Shown here piece by piece: positions 25,235 to 32,957 of a DNA stretch of 64,000 bases. The notes beneath the pieces are model-generated. The model worked only from the letters and a program-made list of their open reading frames with translations. It was not told the origin of the DNA and searched no databases. A program made the translations under genes and the position numbers. Each line of letters starts with the position of its first letter. Within the stretch, counting starts at the first letter, position 1. Source of the DNA: Candidatus Poribacteria bacterium (GTDB taxonomy: Bacteria; Poribacteria; WGA-4E; PCPOR2b); contig OZ244587.1 in NCBI GenBank assembly GCA_965218095.1, positions 1,888,001 to 1,952,000 on the forward strand, read 5' to 3'.

Positions 25235-26045
25235 GGTTCTGTTGACATTTCAAGGGAGCCATATAAGAGTGGAGACAAAGCTGAGAAATCCAAAATAACG
25301 GACAACTAGCTTCTCAAACCGAGAGAAGATACGACGATACCATTTTATCTTGTTGATGAAACATTCAACCCGATGTCTCTCTTTGTATAAGTGTTTGTCA
25401 TACGTTCTTTGGTCAACACGATGACTTTTTGGCGGTATCACCGCAATCACTCCATTCGCCTTGATAACCGCGATAAAAGCGTCCGAATCGTACCCCTTGT
25501 CTCCATCACTGTTATATCCGATTATCAACCCTTCTGCCTCAGTTATGTCATGTCTCTGACCGGGGGTCAGATGAATTCTTAGGGGATTGCCTAGTCCGTC
25601 AACTGTGATGTGATTTTTTGTACTGAAACCGCCCCGAGACCGACCTAATGCTTGGTTTTCAGTGCCACCCTTTTTTTTAAGGCGCCCGCCGCACACGGGT
25701 GAGCGCGGCAGATTGTACTGTCCACAATAAGCGACTCGATATCGGGGTCAGAGGCGAAGTGGGGGTGCATCTGTGTGAAGATACCTTTGTCGCACCATCG
25801 AGCAAAACGCTTGTAGCGGGTGTTCCATTTGCCATAGGTGTCTGGTAGAAGTCTCCATTGAGCCCCGCTACGAGTCACCCACAGGACGGCTTCGACGAAG
25901 CGGCGTGTAGCAGCTTCGTCGCCAACATAGATGGTGGGACAGCTTAGAAGAAACCGGTATATCTTATTCCATTGTTCATCAGATAAGGTTATTGGCGTCA
26001 TTCTTCTATTATGCCACAACCTTATACTCAAATGTCAACAGAATC
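25235..26045 (-). mobile_element. IS5-family (IS427-like) element; transposase in two ORFs joined at an A-run
   Basis: TIRs GGTTCTGTTGACATTT / AAATGTCAACAGAATC, TA flanks; [34 protein letters not shown]. Confidence 0.95.
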
Positions 26046-26512
26046 TAGTAAAAAAACGCTGTTTTATCGTTTCTCCACGGGGTCAAGACCCTTTTCGTAT
26101 TCCTACTGATTTAGGGGTGACCCCTGCGACCTATATCCCGAAAGGCAGGATAATAACCTTGTAGCCGCATTAGGTCCTACCTGTCACCAAATAAGGAAAG
26201 CCATAAGTAGACGATTACAGAATATGGCAGAAAGTGAGTAGTCATGAGCGATTGAACCGGGTGACTAAAGTGCAAAAGTAGAATTGACAAGGCTTCAAGC
26301 ACTTGTGGGACGAGAAAAAGCGAGCAGAAAATTGACGAAAGAATCTCTCCCCATTGCCGCTTGAGAGCACCAATCGCTTTGTCTCGCTTCGGCCATCTTA
26401 TCCGATGTTTGACTTTGGCTAACAGAAAATACAACACGGCCCGGCATATGATGTGACCTCCCCAGAAGCGACCAAACCCAAAACTCAAGCTTACATTGAA
26501 AGGAGTTTTTCC

Positions 26513-28094
26513 ATGAAAACCTTACAGATCTTCTTTGTGTGTCTGATTTTAGGAATCGGACAGGTGACCGTAACCCACGCCGCCGAAGTTAAGTTCCTCC
26601 CGGAGGACATAGGCCAAGGTGACTGGTTTGGATTCTCCGTCTCCATCAGCGGGGACACCGTCATCGCCGGGACTCCGTTCAACGCGGGAACAGGCTCCGC
26701 CTATATCTCCGTATTCGACAATGGGAATTGGATACAGGAGGCGAAACTGGTCGCCGCCGACCTAGCTGCAAAAAACTGGTTTGGATTTTCTGTCTCCATC
26801 AGCGAGGCTAACGCCATTGTCGGCGCTCCACTTCACAATGTTGCCGATGTAAAATGGACAGGCGCGGCGTATATTTTCGTGCGTAAAGTAAAGGGTCAGC
26901 GAGCAGAATGGGAAGAGCAGGCGAAACTCATTGCCAAGGACGCAGGGAAAGAGGACGAGTTCGGATATGCCGTTGCCATCAGCGGGGACACTGCCATCAT
27001 TGGAGCGCATCTAGACAGCCATGAGGGGGCAGAAAAGGCTGGCTCTGCCTACATCTTCGTTCGCGAGAGGGACGGTTGGAAACAGCAGGCAAAGCTTATT
27101 GCCAGCGACGCCGCGGAAAAGGACGAGTTCGGGAGATCCGTCGCCATTCACAAGAACACTGTCATCATCGGAGCGCATCTAGACGATGATAGCGGCAGCA
27201 AGTCCGGCGCGGCGTATATCTTCGCGTGGGAGGGGGAGGCGTGGAGTGAGCAGGCAAAGCTTACCACCAGCGACGCCGCCGCACGTGACGAGTTCGGAAC
27301 TTCCGTCGCCATCAGCGGACGCTCCGTCATCGTCGGATCACCATTGGACGATGATGCCGGCAGCAAGTCCGGTTCGGCGTATATCTTCGCGCGCAACGGG
27401 GGCGTGGAGTGAGCAGGTGAAACTTACCGCCAGCGACGCGGCGGCAGGCGCCCAGTTCGGCGCCGCTGTCGCCTTCGACGTGAATCGGATCATCGTCGGG
27501 GCGCCATTGCACGATGCTTCCAAAGCGGATATGGGCACCGCCTATGCCTTTTTACGGGTTGATGGGGCGTGGGTTGAGCAGTCAAAGACCACCCACAAGA
27601 AAGCAGAGGAAGCGGATGAGTTCGGACATGCCGTTGCCGTCGTCACAGCCCATAGGAAAAATCTTCGTGCTGCAGGAGGACCATGTTGTGATTTCGGAGT
27701 CGATGGCGGGGCAGCGTATATGTATGATGCCACAAAAGATCTTAGTATACCTCTCTCCGTCGAGCCGGCTTTCTTGACGACGACTACGTTGGGGCAGGTC
27801 AAGCAGTCGGCATTGCTTCAAAACTTCCCCAATCCGTTTAATCCAGAAACATGGATGCCGTATGTGTTAGCCGCCGATGCCAAAGTGACCATTCGTATCT
27901 ACGATGTGCAAGGACAACTTGTCCGTCAGTTAGCGCCCGGTTTGCGACAAGCGGGCAGTTATCTCAGCCGAGAAACCGCGGCGTATTGGGATGGCAAAGA
28001 CCGATTCGGAGAGGCGGTTTCGAGTGGCATCTATTTCTACACGCTTAAGGCTAGCGCTTTCCAAGCCACCCGACGAATGGTCATCTTGAAATAG
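26513..28094 (+). pseudogene. Secreted FG-GAP repeat protein with a Poribacteria-type C-terminal domain, frameshifted near 27400
   Basis: Signal peptide; repeated FG.SVAISG..IIGA..D..GSAYIF; C-terminal LLQNFPNPFNPETWMPY lies in a different frame. Confidence 0.85.
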
Positions 28095-28219
28095 TATCAA
28101 ATGACCAGATGATGGTTGGAATGCTGATGTCTATTGCCTTCCAGCCATCACCCATGAGCGGGTTGGATTGGGTGAACTCGCATCTCCTTCGAGAAATGGA
28201 TACGCTTGGATATAAGCGT
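28095..28219 (-). ncRNA. Predicted ~125-nt structured RNA from the element's non-coding end
   Basis: Lies downstream of a near-consensus promoter; four consecutive hairpins; no ORF. Confidence 0.55.
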
Positions 28220-28224
28220 AACGA

Positions 28225-28253
28225 AGTATAGCAAAAAAGATAGCGGGTGTCAA
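28225..28253 (-). promoter_or_regulatory. Sigma70 promoter TTGACA-N17-TATACT with extended -10 TG
   Basis: -35 at 28253-28248, -10 at 28230-28225. Confidence 0.8.
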
Positions 28254-28320
28254 ACCAATCTTCAAGTAAAATTACGATGTTTTGTTGGGCAAAACGCTAA
28301 GCAACGTTTGTCCGATTTTA

Positions 28321-29213
28321 TCATTGGGGGTCTCCTGTAGGTTCGGAACGGAACAGGGTGTTGGCATCTTTACAGCTTTCTGATTCGGTTGCTAAGTTAG
28401 CGTCCATGTCATCAAGCGAATGTTGAGGAATCAGGTCAAGATATTGAGAGATGACGCGTTTGGAGAGCCGGGTAATCTGAGAGATTTTGTCAATATCCTC
28501 CGTAGCGGCACGAACCGTCTTAACGGACTCATAATCGCGAATGTATCGGTCAACCGCTTCTTTAGAGTGGCTGGTTTTGGCAGCAGATGCCCTTGGAGAT
28601 AGAGGGTAACAATCTCTTTCTTGTGGGTAATCGCTCCCGATAAATCATGGATATTGCCCCGGGTGGGCAAGAGTTTTCCACTATTTTTTTGCCACTCATT
28701 GACATAGTCGCTGACGATGGCATCACAGATATTGAGCAACACAGCTAGGTCGAGTTGGGTCAATAATGCGCCTTGGTCATAGGCTTGATAACACCATCGG
28801 ACTAATCAATTGATTCTGAGTTGCCGGGAAGTAAAACCGTTGCGAAAGGATTCAATATCCTCAGAAGCGAGGTAGGTCAGAACAACCAGCTTCATAGCGG
28901 TTTTGACGATTGACTTCCCTTTTTGTGGGTATTCATCAATCGGCACAGCCATCCGGACCAATTGCCCATAACTGAGCATTCGCTGATTAGGGATTTGGTC
29001 TCCTGTGGCGAGTTTCTCAAGGGGGAGGGCAATCAAGAAATAGCCTTCAATGGTTTTGACAATGTCATCAACAATGACAGCCGCCGTGACTTCTCCTTTG
29101 TCATAACCGTAAGAATTGATAAAGCGATGAATTAGTAGCTATTGCAGGGATTTATCATTGAGGCGTCTGAATTTCTTCTCGTTGACTTCGGTTCGAGTCA
29201 AGGGTTTACTCAT
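28321..29213 (-). pseudogene. Second DUF1670-like gene (two nonsense codons and one frameshift)
   Basis: ATGA overlap with ORF1; TAG at 29139-41, TGA at 28806-08, frameshift near 28580; QAYDQGALLTQLDLA, PTRGNIHD, THKK, HSKEAVDRY. Confidence 0.8.
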
Positions 29214-30010
29214 GAGGGGTTCCCCTTTTCCGCATCAACCGGTTCCGGGTGAAGGAGTTGAGTCATTCGTTGTGTTTGTTGGTACTCATCATATAGCAAG
29301 AGATACTCCCGAATTAGTCGGTCCGATAGATGCGTAATGAGCCGTATCTGTCCCTTTGGAAAGCCTTGATGATGGAGGCTTGCTACCTGTGTGAAATCGC
29401 GCAAGTATCGCCAGACCGCTCGTTGGGTATGATTAGTCTTTTGCTCAATTTCAGTGAACTGATACCCTTTGAAGTACAATTCCAGAATCTGAGTCTTATG
29501 AGAGATGCCAGGCCCCATGTCATGTTTGGCACCGCGAGTCATAACAAAGTAACCGTCCTGTTTCAACTGTCGAATGTCGCGCTTGACGGTCGCTGGACTG
29601 GTGGTTAATAGCACCGCTAAATCTTCATAGCTGAGCAGGGCATCTTGGTCATAGGCTTGTTTGGTTAATCGGAGAATTCGATGGCGTCTGAGTCCAGAAA
29701 GCCCATAATCGGCTAACATCTCAAGGTCAGTTTGGACATCATTGAGAGTGAGTTGACATGAGACTTTTTTCGCTAACGCGATATGTTTGCCTGCCGGTTC
29801 ATCGGCTGCGACTGCCTCATAGCAGATTTGGCCTGACGTGAGTTCAATTTCGGCATGTTGAGCAAAGTAGGAAGCAATCTGTTTATAGTAGGCTTCGGCA
29901 ATCAGTGGCATTAGATTAAAGTCTGATGAAATCTTCTGAATGATGGCTGCCCTTGCGGTCTTTGATTGTAGACGGTTGATACCGTAGGCTGTATTGCTTT
30001 GTGGTTTCAT
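29210..30010 (-). CDS. DUF1670-like protein
   Basis: RILRLTKQAYDQDALLSYEDLAVLL..S..TVKRDI, TRGAKHDMGPGISHK; GGAGG RBS; upstream TTGTAT-N17-TAAACT. Confidence 0.8.
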   Translation of the reverse strand: MKPQSNTAYGINRLQSKTARAAIIQKISSDFNLMPLIAEAYYKQIASYFAQHAEIELTSGQICYEAVAADEPAGKHIALAKKVSCQLTLNDVQTDLEMLADYGLSGLRRHRILRLTKQAYDQDALLSYEDLAVLLTTSPATVKRDIRQLKQDGYFVMTRGAKHDMGPGISHKTQILELYFKGYQFTEIEQKTNHTQRAVWRYLRDFTQVASLHHQGFPKGQIRLITHLSDRLIREYLLLYDEYQQTQRMTQLLHPEPVDAEKGNPS

Positions 30011-30138
30011 ATTGACCTCCATGAGTGGATTGTAGTTGATGGCAATACCATCTCCTTTTAGTTTAGCTCATGGGGTCATTTGATACAAACTATAAATAGA
30101 AGGAGCGTATTGTAACGCGCACCGATTGTTTTGATTTG

Positions 30139-30167
30139 GCCCGCATCTCAGTAATGCAGGCTTTTTT
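30139..30167 (+). terminator. Probable intrinsic terminator of the FG-GAP gene, displaced by the element
   Basis: GCCCGCAT-loop-ATGCAGGC followed by a T-run. Confidence 0.5.
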
Positions 30168-30815
30168 CATAGAAAATTCGTGCCTCCCTATCAAGGGGAA
30201 TTATTTGCTATTGTGGAGAGCACGAAGCCAGATATCGTTATCTACACGAACGTAAGCGCAAGAAGTCGTATGGGCAACAGGTAGCGCGGGCTTCAAATCC
30301 GGTCAATGGAGTCGGCGCAGACCGGGTGGTGAGCGTCTAAATCATACCATTTGCAGCGAATCCAGACTTCGGAAGTTTTCCGCAGGATCGTTTCGATTCA
30401 AACCACGCGCAAAACTTCTGAAGGCTTAAACAGTGAAGGAACTCGCCCTTCTAGTGGCACCTGAGCTGCTCACGGATTTGACGTGTCGCTTTATCGATTC
30501 CCTGTTTTTGATGCAGCGTCAAAAACCTCCAGTCAATAGATTGGTGGCATGCATGAATTTTAGGAAGCAAAGTTGTTCTTACCTTTCGCGTAATCCCGAG
30601 GAAGTTTTTTTAATTTCGGAGTCCGAATCCGCACGTAGCACGGATCTAATAATCGGCCGTTTCACTTGAGAAACACGACCTTTGCGGTGATGTGGCAATC
30701 CATCGAATCGGGAGGGAACTCCTGCTACGACTGGATCTAAAAATTAGAAAAATTGTTCCGAAATAATGCGAAAGGTCAGCTAAAGGCTACACATTACGCA
30801 TTTCGGAGATGTTTG

Positions 30816-31880
30816 TTGGACTTGACAGATTACCGAAACCAACTGGATCAGATCGATGATCAGATTTTAGCCCTTTTGCATCGGCGGGCAGAGATCGTTG
30901 AGAAGGTTGGCGAACACAAATCGAGCATAGGTGTCGAGAGTATCTACGTTCCGCACCGTGAAAAAGAGATTATTACTCGGTTGAAGGCGCAGAACAACGA
31001 TCGATTTCCCGTCGGGGCTTTAGAAATGATCTACGCCGAGATTATATCTGCATGCCGTGCGCTCGAAAAACAGTTACGCATTGCATGCCTCGGCCCCGTT
31101 GGCAGCTTTGGGCATGCCGCAAGTTTGCACCACTTTGGGTCATCGGCGGAGTTCATCACGGTGACGCCACAGCCCGACATCTTTAGAGCTGTCGAATCTA
31201 GTAGAGCTGACTACGGCGTCGTCGCCATCGAAAACTCCAGGCATGGAACGGTCCGTGATGTTCTAGCAATGTTCCAGCACACAACCCTGCAAATCTGTGC
31301 TGAATGTTTCTTGCGGATTGATCAAAACCTGCTTTCAAAATCCCCTATCGGTCAAATCTCGAAGATCTACTCTCATCCACAGCCTTTTGCCCAATGCCGT
31401 GAATGGCTCCGCCAAAATTTGAAAGGCGTCCAACAGATCGAGGTTGCCAGCACTTCAGAAGCAGCGGAGTTAGCCGCCAATGAGACAGGCGCAGCGGCAA
31501 TAGCGAGTAAACTCGCCGGCGAGATTTATGGGCTGTCTGTGGTCAGTGGGTCCATCATGGATGACCCGAGCAATACGACGCGCTTTCTTATTATCGGGCG
31601 ACATTCAGCAGAGATAAGCGGAGAGGACCGAACTTCTATTCTTTTCGCCATCAAGGATAAGGTTGGCGCGTTGTGGGAAGTATTGAGCGTTTTGAAGAAC
31701 TATGAAATCAATATGAGTAAGATCGAATCCTTGCCCTCCCGTACCAAAGCGTGGGAGTATGTGTTTTTTGTGGACCTCGATGGGCATGCCGAAGATGAAA
31801 ACGTCCGACAGGCGCTTGCAGAAATTGGAGAGTTGTGCGTGTTGGTGAAAATCCTGGGGGCTTATCCACGGGGTTCTTAA
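30816..31880 (+). CDS. pheA: Chorismate mutase / prephenate dehydratase
   Basis: R.QLDQIDDQI CM domain, IENS, YSHPQ, NTTRF, ACT domain. Confidence 0.95.
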   Translation: MDLTDYRNQLDQIDDQILALLHRRAEIVEKVGEHKSSIGVESIYVPHREKEIITRLKAQNNDRFPVGALEMIYAEIISACRALEKQLRIACLGPVGSFGHAASLHHFGSSAEFITVTPQPDIFRAVESSRADYGVVAIENSRHGTVRDVLAMFQHTTLQICAECFLRIDQNLLSKSPIGQISKIYSHPQPFAQCREWLRQNLKGVQQIEVASTSEAAELAANETGAAAIASKLAGEIYGLSVVSGSIMDDPSNTTRFLIIGRHSAEISGEDRTSILFAIKDKVGALWEVLSVLKNYEINMSKIESLPSRTKAWEYVFFVDLDGHAEDENVRQALAEIGELCVLVKILGAYPRGS

Positions 31881-31919
31881 CAAAACAGCAAAATTCTCTG
31901 CCTTCTATTTCCCCTCTAA

Positions 31920-32957
31920 TTACCCTTTTCCGAACCATATAACAAGCGAAATCAGGTTTACCAAGCTATGCGTGAGCATGCACAGGATGAGTGATTTCGT
32001 CCGAATAAACAGCAATGCGAGGACTAGCCCCATGAGAAATATCGGAATTCCCCCAAGGACTACCGGTGTGAAATGACGGAGGCTTCCATGAAGTGCGGCG
32101 AAAAGAAGCGCACTGAGCAGGATGCCTTTCGCGCGACCAAATCGACCGGCGAAAGCGATATATGCAATGCCCCGGAATAGCATTTCTTCCCCCACTGGCA
32201 TCAAAATTAACATAACAAAAACGAGGAGAACTACTGAACTATCTCCTAAGCTTTGCGGCATGCTGTTCAACCATTGCTGCTGTTCCTGCTGAATCAACGC
32301 CTCCAGTGCGTTTGCAGATATGTGTCGGCTGAACCAGCCTATCCCCTGCGGGAGACCTTCCGAAATGAGAGCTAAAACAGGTGCGAGCAATAACGGCAGC
32401 CCAAAACTGTTAAGGTCGCCATTATATCTCAGCCCTATAGTCGCAACAGTCCTCCGGTAGCGCACGGTTATGCAGAAAAAACACACACAAATGAGTATAT
32501 TTCCGATAATCAGCTTAACAATCCAAAAGTGAGGCACTGAGAGGATGTACATATCCGGCGGTGTCTTCAGCGCCTCGAATCCTTCCGCAATCCACAGTGC
32601 GATAGAACGTACAATTTCCTGAAACAAGAAGGTCACGATGAAAATGACAACCGGGTCTGACGGCTCAAAATAGCCGTGCAGCCTCGCAACGGTTTCTTCT
32701 GCTGTATAAATCTGATTACAGCGTCCACATTTGCGTGACCACGCGTGGTTATCCCGTTGACATTTGGGGCAGATCCAGGTAAGTATGGGTATCTGATTCC
32801 AAAAGTAGATTGGGAAGAATGCCTTTGGAATGAGAAAGGTGCCCAAAGCCCAAAGCACAGATCGCTCTTGCAACTTACTATCATGGTATACCCAAAGGGC
32901 GAGTCCACCGTTTATAAGCCCAATTACAAACAGCCCGTATACCTCTTGCATTGGCAA
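31920..32957 (-). CDS. CPBP/CAAX intramembrane protease with a zinc ribbon
   Basis: EEMLFRG, FAALH, H...N; CPKC..CGRC. Confidence 0.85.
   Translation of the reverse strand: MPMQEVYGLFVIGLINGGLALWVYHDSKLQERSVLWALGTFLIPKAFFPIYFWNQIPILTWICPKCQRDNHAWSRKCGRCNQIYTAEETVARLHGYFEPSDPVVIFIVTFLFQEIVRSIALWIAEGFEALKTPPDMYILSVPHFWIVKLIIGNILICVCFFCITVRYRRTVATIGLRYNGDLNSFGLPLLLAPVLALISEGLPQGIGWFSRHISANALEALIQQEQQQWLNSMPQSLGDSSVVLLVFVMLILMPVGEEMLFRGIAYIAFAGRFGRAKGILLSALLFAALHGSLRHFTPVVLGGIPIFLMGLVLALLFIRTKSLILCMLTHSLVNLISLVIWFGKG

Follow-up and report, generated by a model that had tools for sequence, protein, structure and literature searches.

The question raised by this locus is whether the end of a small insertion element encodes an RNA that guides its movement. 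The DNA analysed here, referred to as the window, is a stretch of 64,000 nucleotides (nt) from a Candidatus Poribacteria bacterium (GenBank assembly GCA_965218095.1, contig OZ244587.1, positions 1,888,001 to 1,952,000). Positions 28094-28320 of the window are the non-coding right end of an insertion element of ~2.0 kb (~28089-30093, minus strand), whose sole genes are two paralogous open reading frames (ORFs) of the DUF1670 family on the minus strand. A sequence-only reading had assigned to this end a strong promoter of its own and a dedicated small RNA of four hairpins, analogous to bridge or seek RNAs. We favour, with moderate confidence, a reading in which the right end combines an outward promoter with a recombination site and its transcript is not a guide. 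Within it, we infer the firing of the promoter, the position of the RNA 3' end and the purpose of the transcription.

The promoter was located by sequence reading and a promoter scan, and was composed of two elements:

28253-28248, minus strand: -35 hexamer, TTGACA.
28233-28225, minus strand: extended -10 element, TGcTATACT (TG at 28233-28232, TATACT at 28230-28225).

The spacer between the -35 and -10 hexamers was 17 nt, and the promoter scan gave a score of 11/12 with the TG. The predicted +1 was the A at 28219, located 6 nt past the -10 hexamer and ~126 nt inside the element end, and it is the first base of hairpin 1 (ACGCTT/AAGCGT), as had been claimed. In the genome of origin (6.35 Mb), 113 sites had a perfect -35, at least 5/6 matches in the -10 and the TG, compared with one in a reversed-genome control; at least three of these sites were copies of the element (349792, 723675, 1916253). 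This enrichment indicates that the organism uses the extended -10 type of promoter.

Thirty-six distinct right ends of related elements were gathered from Poribacteria genomes and metagenomes, and the promoter was retained in all 36. The -35 hexamer was TTGACA in 22 ends, had one mismatch in 12 and was worse in 2; the -10 hexamer was TATACT in 32, the TG was present in 35, and the spacer was 17 nt in 30. Mean pairwise identity was 0.86 for the -35 and 0.92 for the extended -10, compared with 0.60 for the spacer and 0.49 for the 4-fold degenerate sites of ORF1. Such a pattern, with conserved hexamers on either side of a neutral spacer, marks a working promoter. Judged by it, the promoter is a genuine sigma-70 promoter of the extended -10 type, pointing outward and under purifying selection, and the claim that the element end has a strong promoter of its own was upheld.

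Among the metagenome relatives, outward promoter-like sites were found in 15/56 distinct ends, compared with 2/56 on the other strand and 4/56 in shuffled sequences, and the distance from the -10 to the element end was 133, 99, 50 or 37-39 nt. In a sister subfamily (L087-L104; L numbers, such as L008-L179, are labels of individual related element loci), TTGACA-17-TATCAT lay only 37-50 nt from the element end. Since the distance varies by subfamily, the promoter and the repeat are what the subfamilies share, and not the body of an RNA.

No terminator-like site was found on the minus strand within 27500-30800, where all six matches of the scan were on the plus strand. Because the flank also varies between copies, a transcript from 28219 must cross the element end. 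The discrete, dedicated non-coding RNA (ncRNA) of the sequence-only reading is thus not apparent in the sequence; outward read-through into the flank, named beforehand as the outcome that would speak against such an RNA, is what the sequence predicts.

The ends of the element and its junctions with the host gene contained the following features:

28323-28321, minus strand: stop codon of the last frame of ORF2, TGA, read on the minus strand.
28159-28152, minus strand: inner half of the split right repeat, GCTCATGG, matching the start of the left end.
28107-28153, minus strand: terminal 47-nt stem-loop within the inverted repeat, from the RNA fold (hairpin 4 of the sequence-only reading plus a lower stem).
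28106-28094, minus strand: right terminal inverted repeat, GGTCATTTGATAC, 13 nt, pairing with 30086-30074.
28089-28093, minus strand: TA followed by TTT, on the plus strand AAA TA(G), the element-supplied Lys codon and stop, from junction comparison.
30074-30093, minus strand: left end, the 7-mer ATAGTTT and the inverted repeat GTATCAAATGACC, from repeat search and locus comparison.
30094-30099, minus strand: displaced native end of the host gene, TTT and CTA, on the plus strand AAA TAG, from the left flanks.
27186-28094, plus strand: end of the host gene, with a type A sorting domain of the type IX secretion system (T9SS), convergent with the element (TIGR04183, E 1.5e-8, 34.5 bits, cut-off 23).

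The ORF2 stop and the inverted repeat following the hairpins were both located where they had been reported. The left end's initial 21 nt, when reverse-complemented, gave GCTCATGGGGTCATTTGATAC, which is GCTCATGG joined to GGTCATTTGATAC; at the right end, the order was GCTCATGG, stem-loop and then GGTCATTTGATAC. The right repeat had a mean pairwise identity of 0.97 among the relatives' right ends and was conserved in the 49 genome loci, out of 56, that contain both ends. The CTCAT of the inner half was invariant in 23/23 sequences, and the repeats of both ends had changed together in L047, L048 and L053 (GTCTCATATGACC/GGTCATATGAGAC). The 20-nt repeat of the L087-type subfamily was unsplit. A stem-loop joining the repeat halves would be easiest to understand if, at some stage, the end is read as a folded single strand; alternatively, the site may be double-stranded and looped. 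In L148, two diverged elements were arranged head to tail, and the junction was composed of the right repeat, TATTT, ATAGTTT and the left repeat (L148:250-400). A right-repeat-like 13-mer was also observed in the left flanks of L010 (3912) and L092 (44). Two further relations between the ends were tried and rejected: a direct-repeat likeness of left and right end had a z of 4.1 in the window copy and -0.9 to 2.2 in 15 other variants, and a kissing interaction between the left and right loops, judged by eye, fitted the window and L010 only.

The insertion sites were compared at 53 distinct Poribacteria sites, 38 of which were outside a repeat hairpin. The right junction was TATTT at 53/53 sites. 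At 37 of the 38 sites outside the repetitive extragenic palindromic (REP)-like hairpins, the element was located at the exact C-terminus of genes encoding ..FYxLxxxxxxATRKM[LV]ILK; 14 sites occupied loops of a terminator-like repeat, and the remaining one was unclear. Where this repeat was empty in the same two genomes, its sequence was GAAACCGAGTTTTTTCTTCAAAACTCGGTTTC, and the empty REP-like sites were without the TA. When empty and filled sites are compared, the inserted DNA is ATAGTTT and the left repeat through to the right repeat and TA. The left flanks were composed of a reverse-complemented stop codon (CTA/TTA/TCA) plus YTT, and the next three bases were always TTT on the right, whereas the left side had either TTT or CTT. 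The triplets of the two sides were equal in only 19 of 36 metagenome elements; the differing triplets mostly represented synonymous or similar last codons (AAG versus AAA, CGG/CGC versus CGA/AGA), and the right triplet followed the element subfamily. The inspected flanks of metagenome relatives conformed to this pattern, as judged by eye and not as a computed count. Insertion, as read from these junctions, is without target duplication and between the last two codons of sorting-domain genes. It occurred 3' of a short motif, TAYTT (TASCG in other subfamilies), which resembles the last 5 nt of the element itself. The element brings its own last codon (Lys or Arg) and TAG, so that the host protein is unchanged; in the window these are the AAA TAG of plus-strand positions 28089-28094.

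The host gene always converged on the promoter-bearing end. The transcript would start at ~28219 with a small 5' hairpin, cross the element end and run antisense into the host sorting-domain gene. The element removes or splits the terminator region of this convergent gene, and host transcription would therefore run antisense through ORF2 and ORF1. Outward transcription in cis would oppose or neutralise such read-through, which is the most likely selected role, and the promoter would be part of the insulation of the element from host transcription. At the left end (30010-30093, minus strand), GACCCCATGAG of the left repeat can pair with CTCATGGAGGTC, which contains the ribosome-binding site of ORF1, and the single-stranded DNA (ssDNA) fold of this end had a z of -3.33. 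This pairing would silence transcripts entering from outside, which fits a self-shielding element. A -10-like TAAACT/TATACT occurred at a fixed distance from the left repeat in all variants, and transcripts from this own promoter would lack the 5' arm of the left-end fold. That the outward promoter drives ORF1 across a circle or a tandem junction, such as that of L148, is a minor possibility; no circle junction was seen, and transcripts entering via the left repeat could have the ORF1 ribosome-binding site sequestered. The right recombination site would be the 21-nt inverted repeat split by the 47-nt stem-loop, together with other foldable, conserved segments. The hairpins would mainly belong to the architecture of the end, with hairpin 1 also serving RNA stability.

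Outward promoters are known in the ends of insertion sequences (IS), including ISEcp1, ISCR1 (POUT) and IS10 (pOUT), and the pOUT of IS10 is antisense to the start of its own transposase gene. The promoter of the window element is not antisense to its own transposase start. It shares with the outward-facing IS-end promoters, as described in two reports (PMC6218425, PMC9330008), a complete sigma-70 promoter in a non-coding end that points into neighbouring DNA. In contrast to these, it is conserved throughout the family and is followed by ~125 nt of foldable, partly conserved sequence. It also always faces a convergent host gene and thus cannot switch on a downstream gene.

Islands in tRNA genes restore the gene that they enter, and some IS target REP or terminator hairpins. 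The DUF1670 elements resemble the former in that the host end is replaced by a copy of their own (Lys or Arg codon and TAG), and the latter in that some of their lineages are located in hairpin loops at gene ends. In contrast to gene-restoring islands, only a codon and a stop are restored, there is no integrase, and the element enters the coding ends of genes from one large paralogous family, the T9SS sorting domains.

The two genes of the element were characterised as follows:

29210-30022, minus strand: ORF1, 270 aa, DUF1670 (PF07900, E 7.9e-63, 212 bits against a cut-off of 25).
28321-29212, minus strand: ORF2, a DUF1670 paralogue, broken by in-frame TAG and TGA codons and one frameshift.

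ORF2 matched PF07900 with an E of 1.2e-61 and was 35% identical to ORF1. It was intact in most relatives (285-302 aa, overlapping the ORF1 stop), and the intact ORF2 of L030 gave 208 bits to PF07900. The other Pfam matches of both ORFs were to helix-turn-helix (HTH) families only (E up to 0.1 and 0.01), with no match to IS110-type, TnpB/IscB or Y1/HUH families in either ORF. A structure model of ORF1 had a pLDDT (predicted local distance difference test) of 90.1 with a 70-sequence alignment, and the best match of its fold among 48,161 solved chains had a Z of 6.7. Residues 105-168 matched winged-helix folds (NiaR, BirA, Z-alpha and LexA types) and residues ~172-260 matched TrpR/Mor-like helix-turn-helix folds. 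A sequence search of the PDB gave weak HTH matches only, searches of PADLOC, PHROGs and NCBIfam brought up HTH regulators at most, and the ESM Atlas gave HTH-like leads, all under 0.9. DUF1670 stretches also occur two or three to a protein, in sequences of 500-950 aa (P0132, P0135, P0138, P0148 and others), suggesting joint action of the two paralogues.

Upstream of the terminal stem-loop, three hairpins were assigned to the proposed RNA:

28219-28202, minus strand: hairpin 1, ACGCTT (28219-28214) and AAGCGT (28207-28202) with the loop ATATCC, from sequence and RNA fold.
28203-28180, minus strand: hairpin 2, GTATC..GATGC around ATTTCTCGAAGGA, from RNA fold, with a weak stem at 28198-28181.
28175-28148, minus strand: hairpin 3, TCACCCA/TGGGTGA, 7 bp with a 14-nt loop, from sequence.

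The stem at 28198-28181 and the stem-loop at 28147-28113, both reported earlier, were present, the former being weak. The 7-bp stem and 14-nt loop of hairpin 3 were present as well, but they compete with the long form of hairpin 4 (28153-28107), which was preferred in the minimum-energy fold. A further hairpin placed ahead of the promoter (~28287-28313) exists as a stem but has only 5 bp, and its region was variable or deleted in relatives. A recurrent UCCAA motif was indeed found three times here, but in the alignment UCCAA was not conserved at these places. When 28222-28090 was folded as RNA, the energy was -36.1 kcal/mol (z -2.05), and 5/200 shuffles were as good. The hairpin-1 position folded better than shuffles (p<=0.05) in 14/30 variants from two subfamilies, with differing stems and registers and a sequence identity of only 0.55; this behaviour fits a 5' stabiliser, in a way that is not compelling. 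A stretch of 34 nt with hairpin 2 and half of hairpin 3 was absent from L037, L043, L047 and L053, and L083, L173, L174 and L175 were equally short (~94 nt), with the same stretch missing. The short type of right end was found in three copies at different sites of one genome. A search of Rfam with 26000-32000 (E up to 1) gave nothing but a 23-nt chance match. A small peptide in the transcript was considered and rejected: the ATG following AAGGAG opens 11 codons here and 6-17 elsewhere, and none in one clade, as judged by eye.

Several observations weigh against the reading of the right end as an outward promoter and a recombination site. Sequence identity was 0.84 for hairpin 2, where present, and 0.75 for the terminal loop, which is beyond the needs of a promoter. 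In the terminal hairpin, 86% of cells were paired, compared with 30-52% with a slid partner, and just one pair was changed on both sides; when the whole transcript of clade II was modelled with nested stems, the corresponding figures were 85% paired and 34-46% when slid. G-T pairs exceeded A-C pairs in the terminal hairpin (44 versus 16 cells), which is the only strand-specific hint. Stem pairing, conservation and G-T excess would be equally expected of a structured RNA or of an ssDNA form specific to one strand. No transposase or recombinase fold was among the best 50 matches listed for the ORF1 model, in which residues 1-100 were barely covered; as the model showed no known catalytic fold, an RNA partner is conceivable. 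The RNA libraries were represented by contigs only, which give no start, end or strand. The stretch was present in such contigs of four sponge metatranscriptome runs (X1-X4), with a flat cover of ~6-9 over 28136-28387; the contigs broke where the flanks of copies diverge and were uninformative on starts, ends, strand and level. Finally, the shielding role is one that we infer.

These observations bear first on a discrete structured ncRNA that is processed or terminated near the element end and binds the DUF1670 proteins, as a cofactor or regulator without a programmable guide. Such an RNA, which we regard as doubtful, would account for the dedicated conserved promoter, the conserved hairpin 2 and terminal loop, the highly paired model stems, the 5' hairpin at +1 in two subfamilies, and proteins that are built from winged-helix and HTH modules and in which no catalytic fold was recognised. 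Against it stand the lack of a terminator and the behaviour of the stems in the alignment of homologous ends, which had been proposed as a check for conserved structure. The RNAalifold consensus of 21 variants was almost nil at -0.43 kcal/mol, and that of the largest clade (17 variants) was -7.98 with a covariation term of -0.42. The covariation score of the clade-II model was 0.080, the same as in shuffled alignments (0.080), with 2 double-changed pairs where 1.9 were expected; no consensus structure emerged, and covariation was no better than in controls. Neither strand was favoured when folded as RNA (mean z -2.18 for the top and -1.96 for the bottom strand in 21 variants) or as DNA (-3.19 and -3.21). 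Hairpin 2 and part of hairpin 3 were missing in multi-copy variants, and the transcribed part would be only ~30-45 nt in the sister subfamily. An antisense action of the right-end RNA on the ORF1 leader was also rejected, the mean z of complementarity being -0.2 with 3/23 variants below -2. The stretch can evidently fold, and selection on pairing rather than on sequence was not indicated by any of these tests; a dedicated four-hairpin small RNA is, on present alignments, not established.

A second alternative, which seems unlikely, is that the ends act as ssDNA signals in the 'peel and paste' manner of IS200/IS605. The ends would be recognised as a folded top strand in which the left repeat pairs with both halves of the split right repeat to form a three-way junction, and the promoter would be incidental or would aid DNA opening. 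IS200/IS605 elements and the omega RNA-bearing TnpB elements insert without duplication and 3' of a motif like their own end, and they have subterminal hairpins. The same three properties were found here, with insertion 3' of TAYTT/TASCG. A 47-nt hairpin in one repeat only would be most easily tolerated if the strand folds, both ends fold well (z ~-3.2 and -3.3), and the excess of G-T pairs points in the same direction. However, neither TnpA (Y1) nor TnpB is present, Y1/HUH families had no Pfam match in either ORF, and the proteins were HTH-only by sequence and fold search. The window element has perfect terminal inverted repeats of 13-21 nt, to our knowledge not a feature of IS200/IS605. Hairpins occur at both of its ends, its two strands fold equally well, and the strict conservation of the promoter would be left unexplained.

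A combination is also conceivable, in which the DUF1670 proteins, which show only DNA- or RNA-binding modules, move the element together with the right-end transcript as a foldable scaffold, and the destination is set either by the folded split repeat or by transcript that runs on into the flank. We consider this distinctly unlikely; if true, it would be a form of RNA-assisted homing unrelated to Cas, TnpB and IS110 enzymes, with the last codon of secretion-signal genes as its target.

It is very unlikely that the transcript is a flank-reading guide like the TnpB omega RNA, with a conserved scaffold and a guide taken from the flank through which copies home to similar sites. The order of promoter, ~125-nt foldable stretch, element end and target, with no terminator, would suit such a guide, and the RNA would, like the omega RNA, span the right end into the flank. 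The targets are families of similar sequences, one clade had switched to a repeat hairpin target, and ATGGTCATCTTGAAA was present in 3/5 occupied own-genome sites and in 0/17 unoccupied sorting-domain ends. However, no TnpB/IscB-type protein is encoded. The preferred target word (GGTCATCTTGA) resembles the element's own repeat (GGTCATTTGA), and protein recognition of repeat-like DNA would explain the targeting without an RNA. L023 (sorting-domain end) and L018/L179 (repeat hairpin) had nearly the same right end, and the target-switched L018 differed from L023 by clustered changes in ORF2 residues 113-135. A hairpin repeat of 32 nt (GAAACCGAG-loop-CTCGGTTTC) was present in 44 copies in G176 (the genome of L013) and in 43 copies in G177 (that of L018), and several of these copies were within a few hundred bases of one another.

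The original proposal was a bridge- or seek-type RNA with internal loops pairing with target and donor. As described in the seekRNA report (10.1101/2024.04.26.591405), IS1111/IS110 elements share with the window element a non-coding region downstream of the gene and site-specific insertion without duplication, and some of them also target repeat sequences (same report and PMC12288879). The defining features given in the former are a DEDD transposase and RNA segments matching both target strands, and the window element had neither of them, its proteins being DUF1670 only. When the RNA was matched to the left or right flank in either sense, the longest matches were mostly 5-7 nt and mostly at p>0.05 compared with shuffles. 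Matches of 7 nt to reconstructed empty sites were 1.06 per pair, compared with 0.60 in shuffled sequences (50 pairs); this weak excess was scattered, with the arms of hairpin 2 among the positions involved and no constant place. The variants without hairpin 2 and part of hairpin 3 were inserted into the same kind of target in several copies, one RNA sequence was associated with the different targets of L023 and L018/L179, and the RNA region was unlinked to target choice. On the favoured reading, the transcript, which would be shortest in the sister subfamily, is not a bridge- or seek-type guide RNA; it shows no complementarity to the target beyond chance, and the original proposal is extremely improbable.

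The claimed guide RNA is thus probably not one, and the locus is still worth attention. The targeting is precise and gentle, since a sorting-domain gene is entered, a replacement codon and stop are supplied and the protein is unchanged, and a sister lineage has moved to terminator-like repeats. Because the proteins show no known transposase or recombinase fold, the conserved promoter and the in-repeat hairpin become handles on the movement of the element, and they permit a test of whether ssDNA or RNA is involved. Papers naming DUF1670 or PF07900 were not found in main texts, although supplementary files, which were outside the search, might mention the family, and no papers surfaced on IS aimed at the gene ends of T9SS sorting domains. 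We regard the DUF1670 element as an undescribed mobile-element family, with relatives in 46/176 Poribacteria genomes and in many metagenomes.

The host gene of the window copy also matched Por_Secre_tail and FlgD_ig. It looks frameshifted, as an ORF of FG-GAP repeats (26453-27412, plus strand) overlaps 27186-28094 in another frame. The genome contained four copies of the element that were 99.7-100% identical, those beside the window copy being at G000:C1 346824, 719845 and 5724822. The lesions of ORF2 (two in-frame stops and the frameshift) were the same in all four, and no intact ORF2 was seen in this genome; either the element spread after the breakage or the copies were homogenised. Three of the four copies were interrupted (G000:C1 719873-721867, 347633-348748 and 5725475-5726325; L180-L182). 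Two of the interrupting insertions carried the same 336-aa DDE_Tnp_1 transposase of an ordinary DDE IS, one of them also with an IS630-type gene, and in the third 851 nt were found in place of ~300 nt of the element. PF18962 matches abutted two further copies and one remnant in this genome. At G000:C1:665855, a solo right-end remnant of ~27 nt, composed of the repeat and CCATCATCT, was located at the stop codon of a fifth sorting-domain gene.

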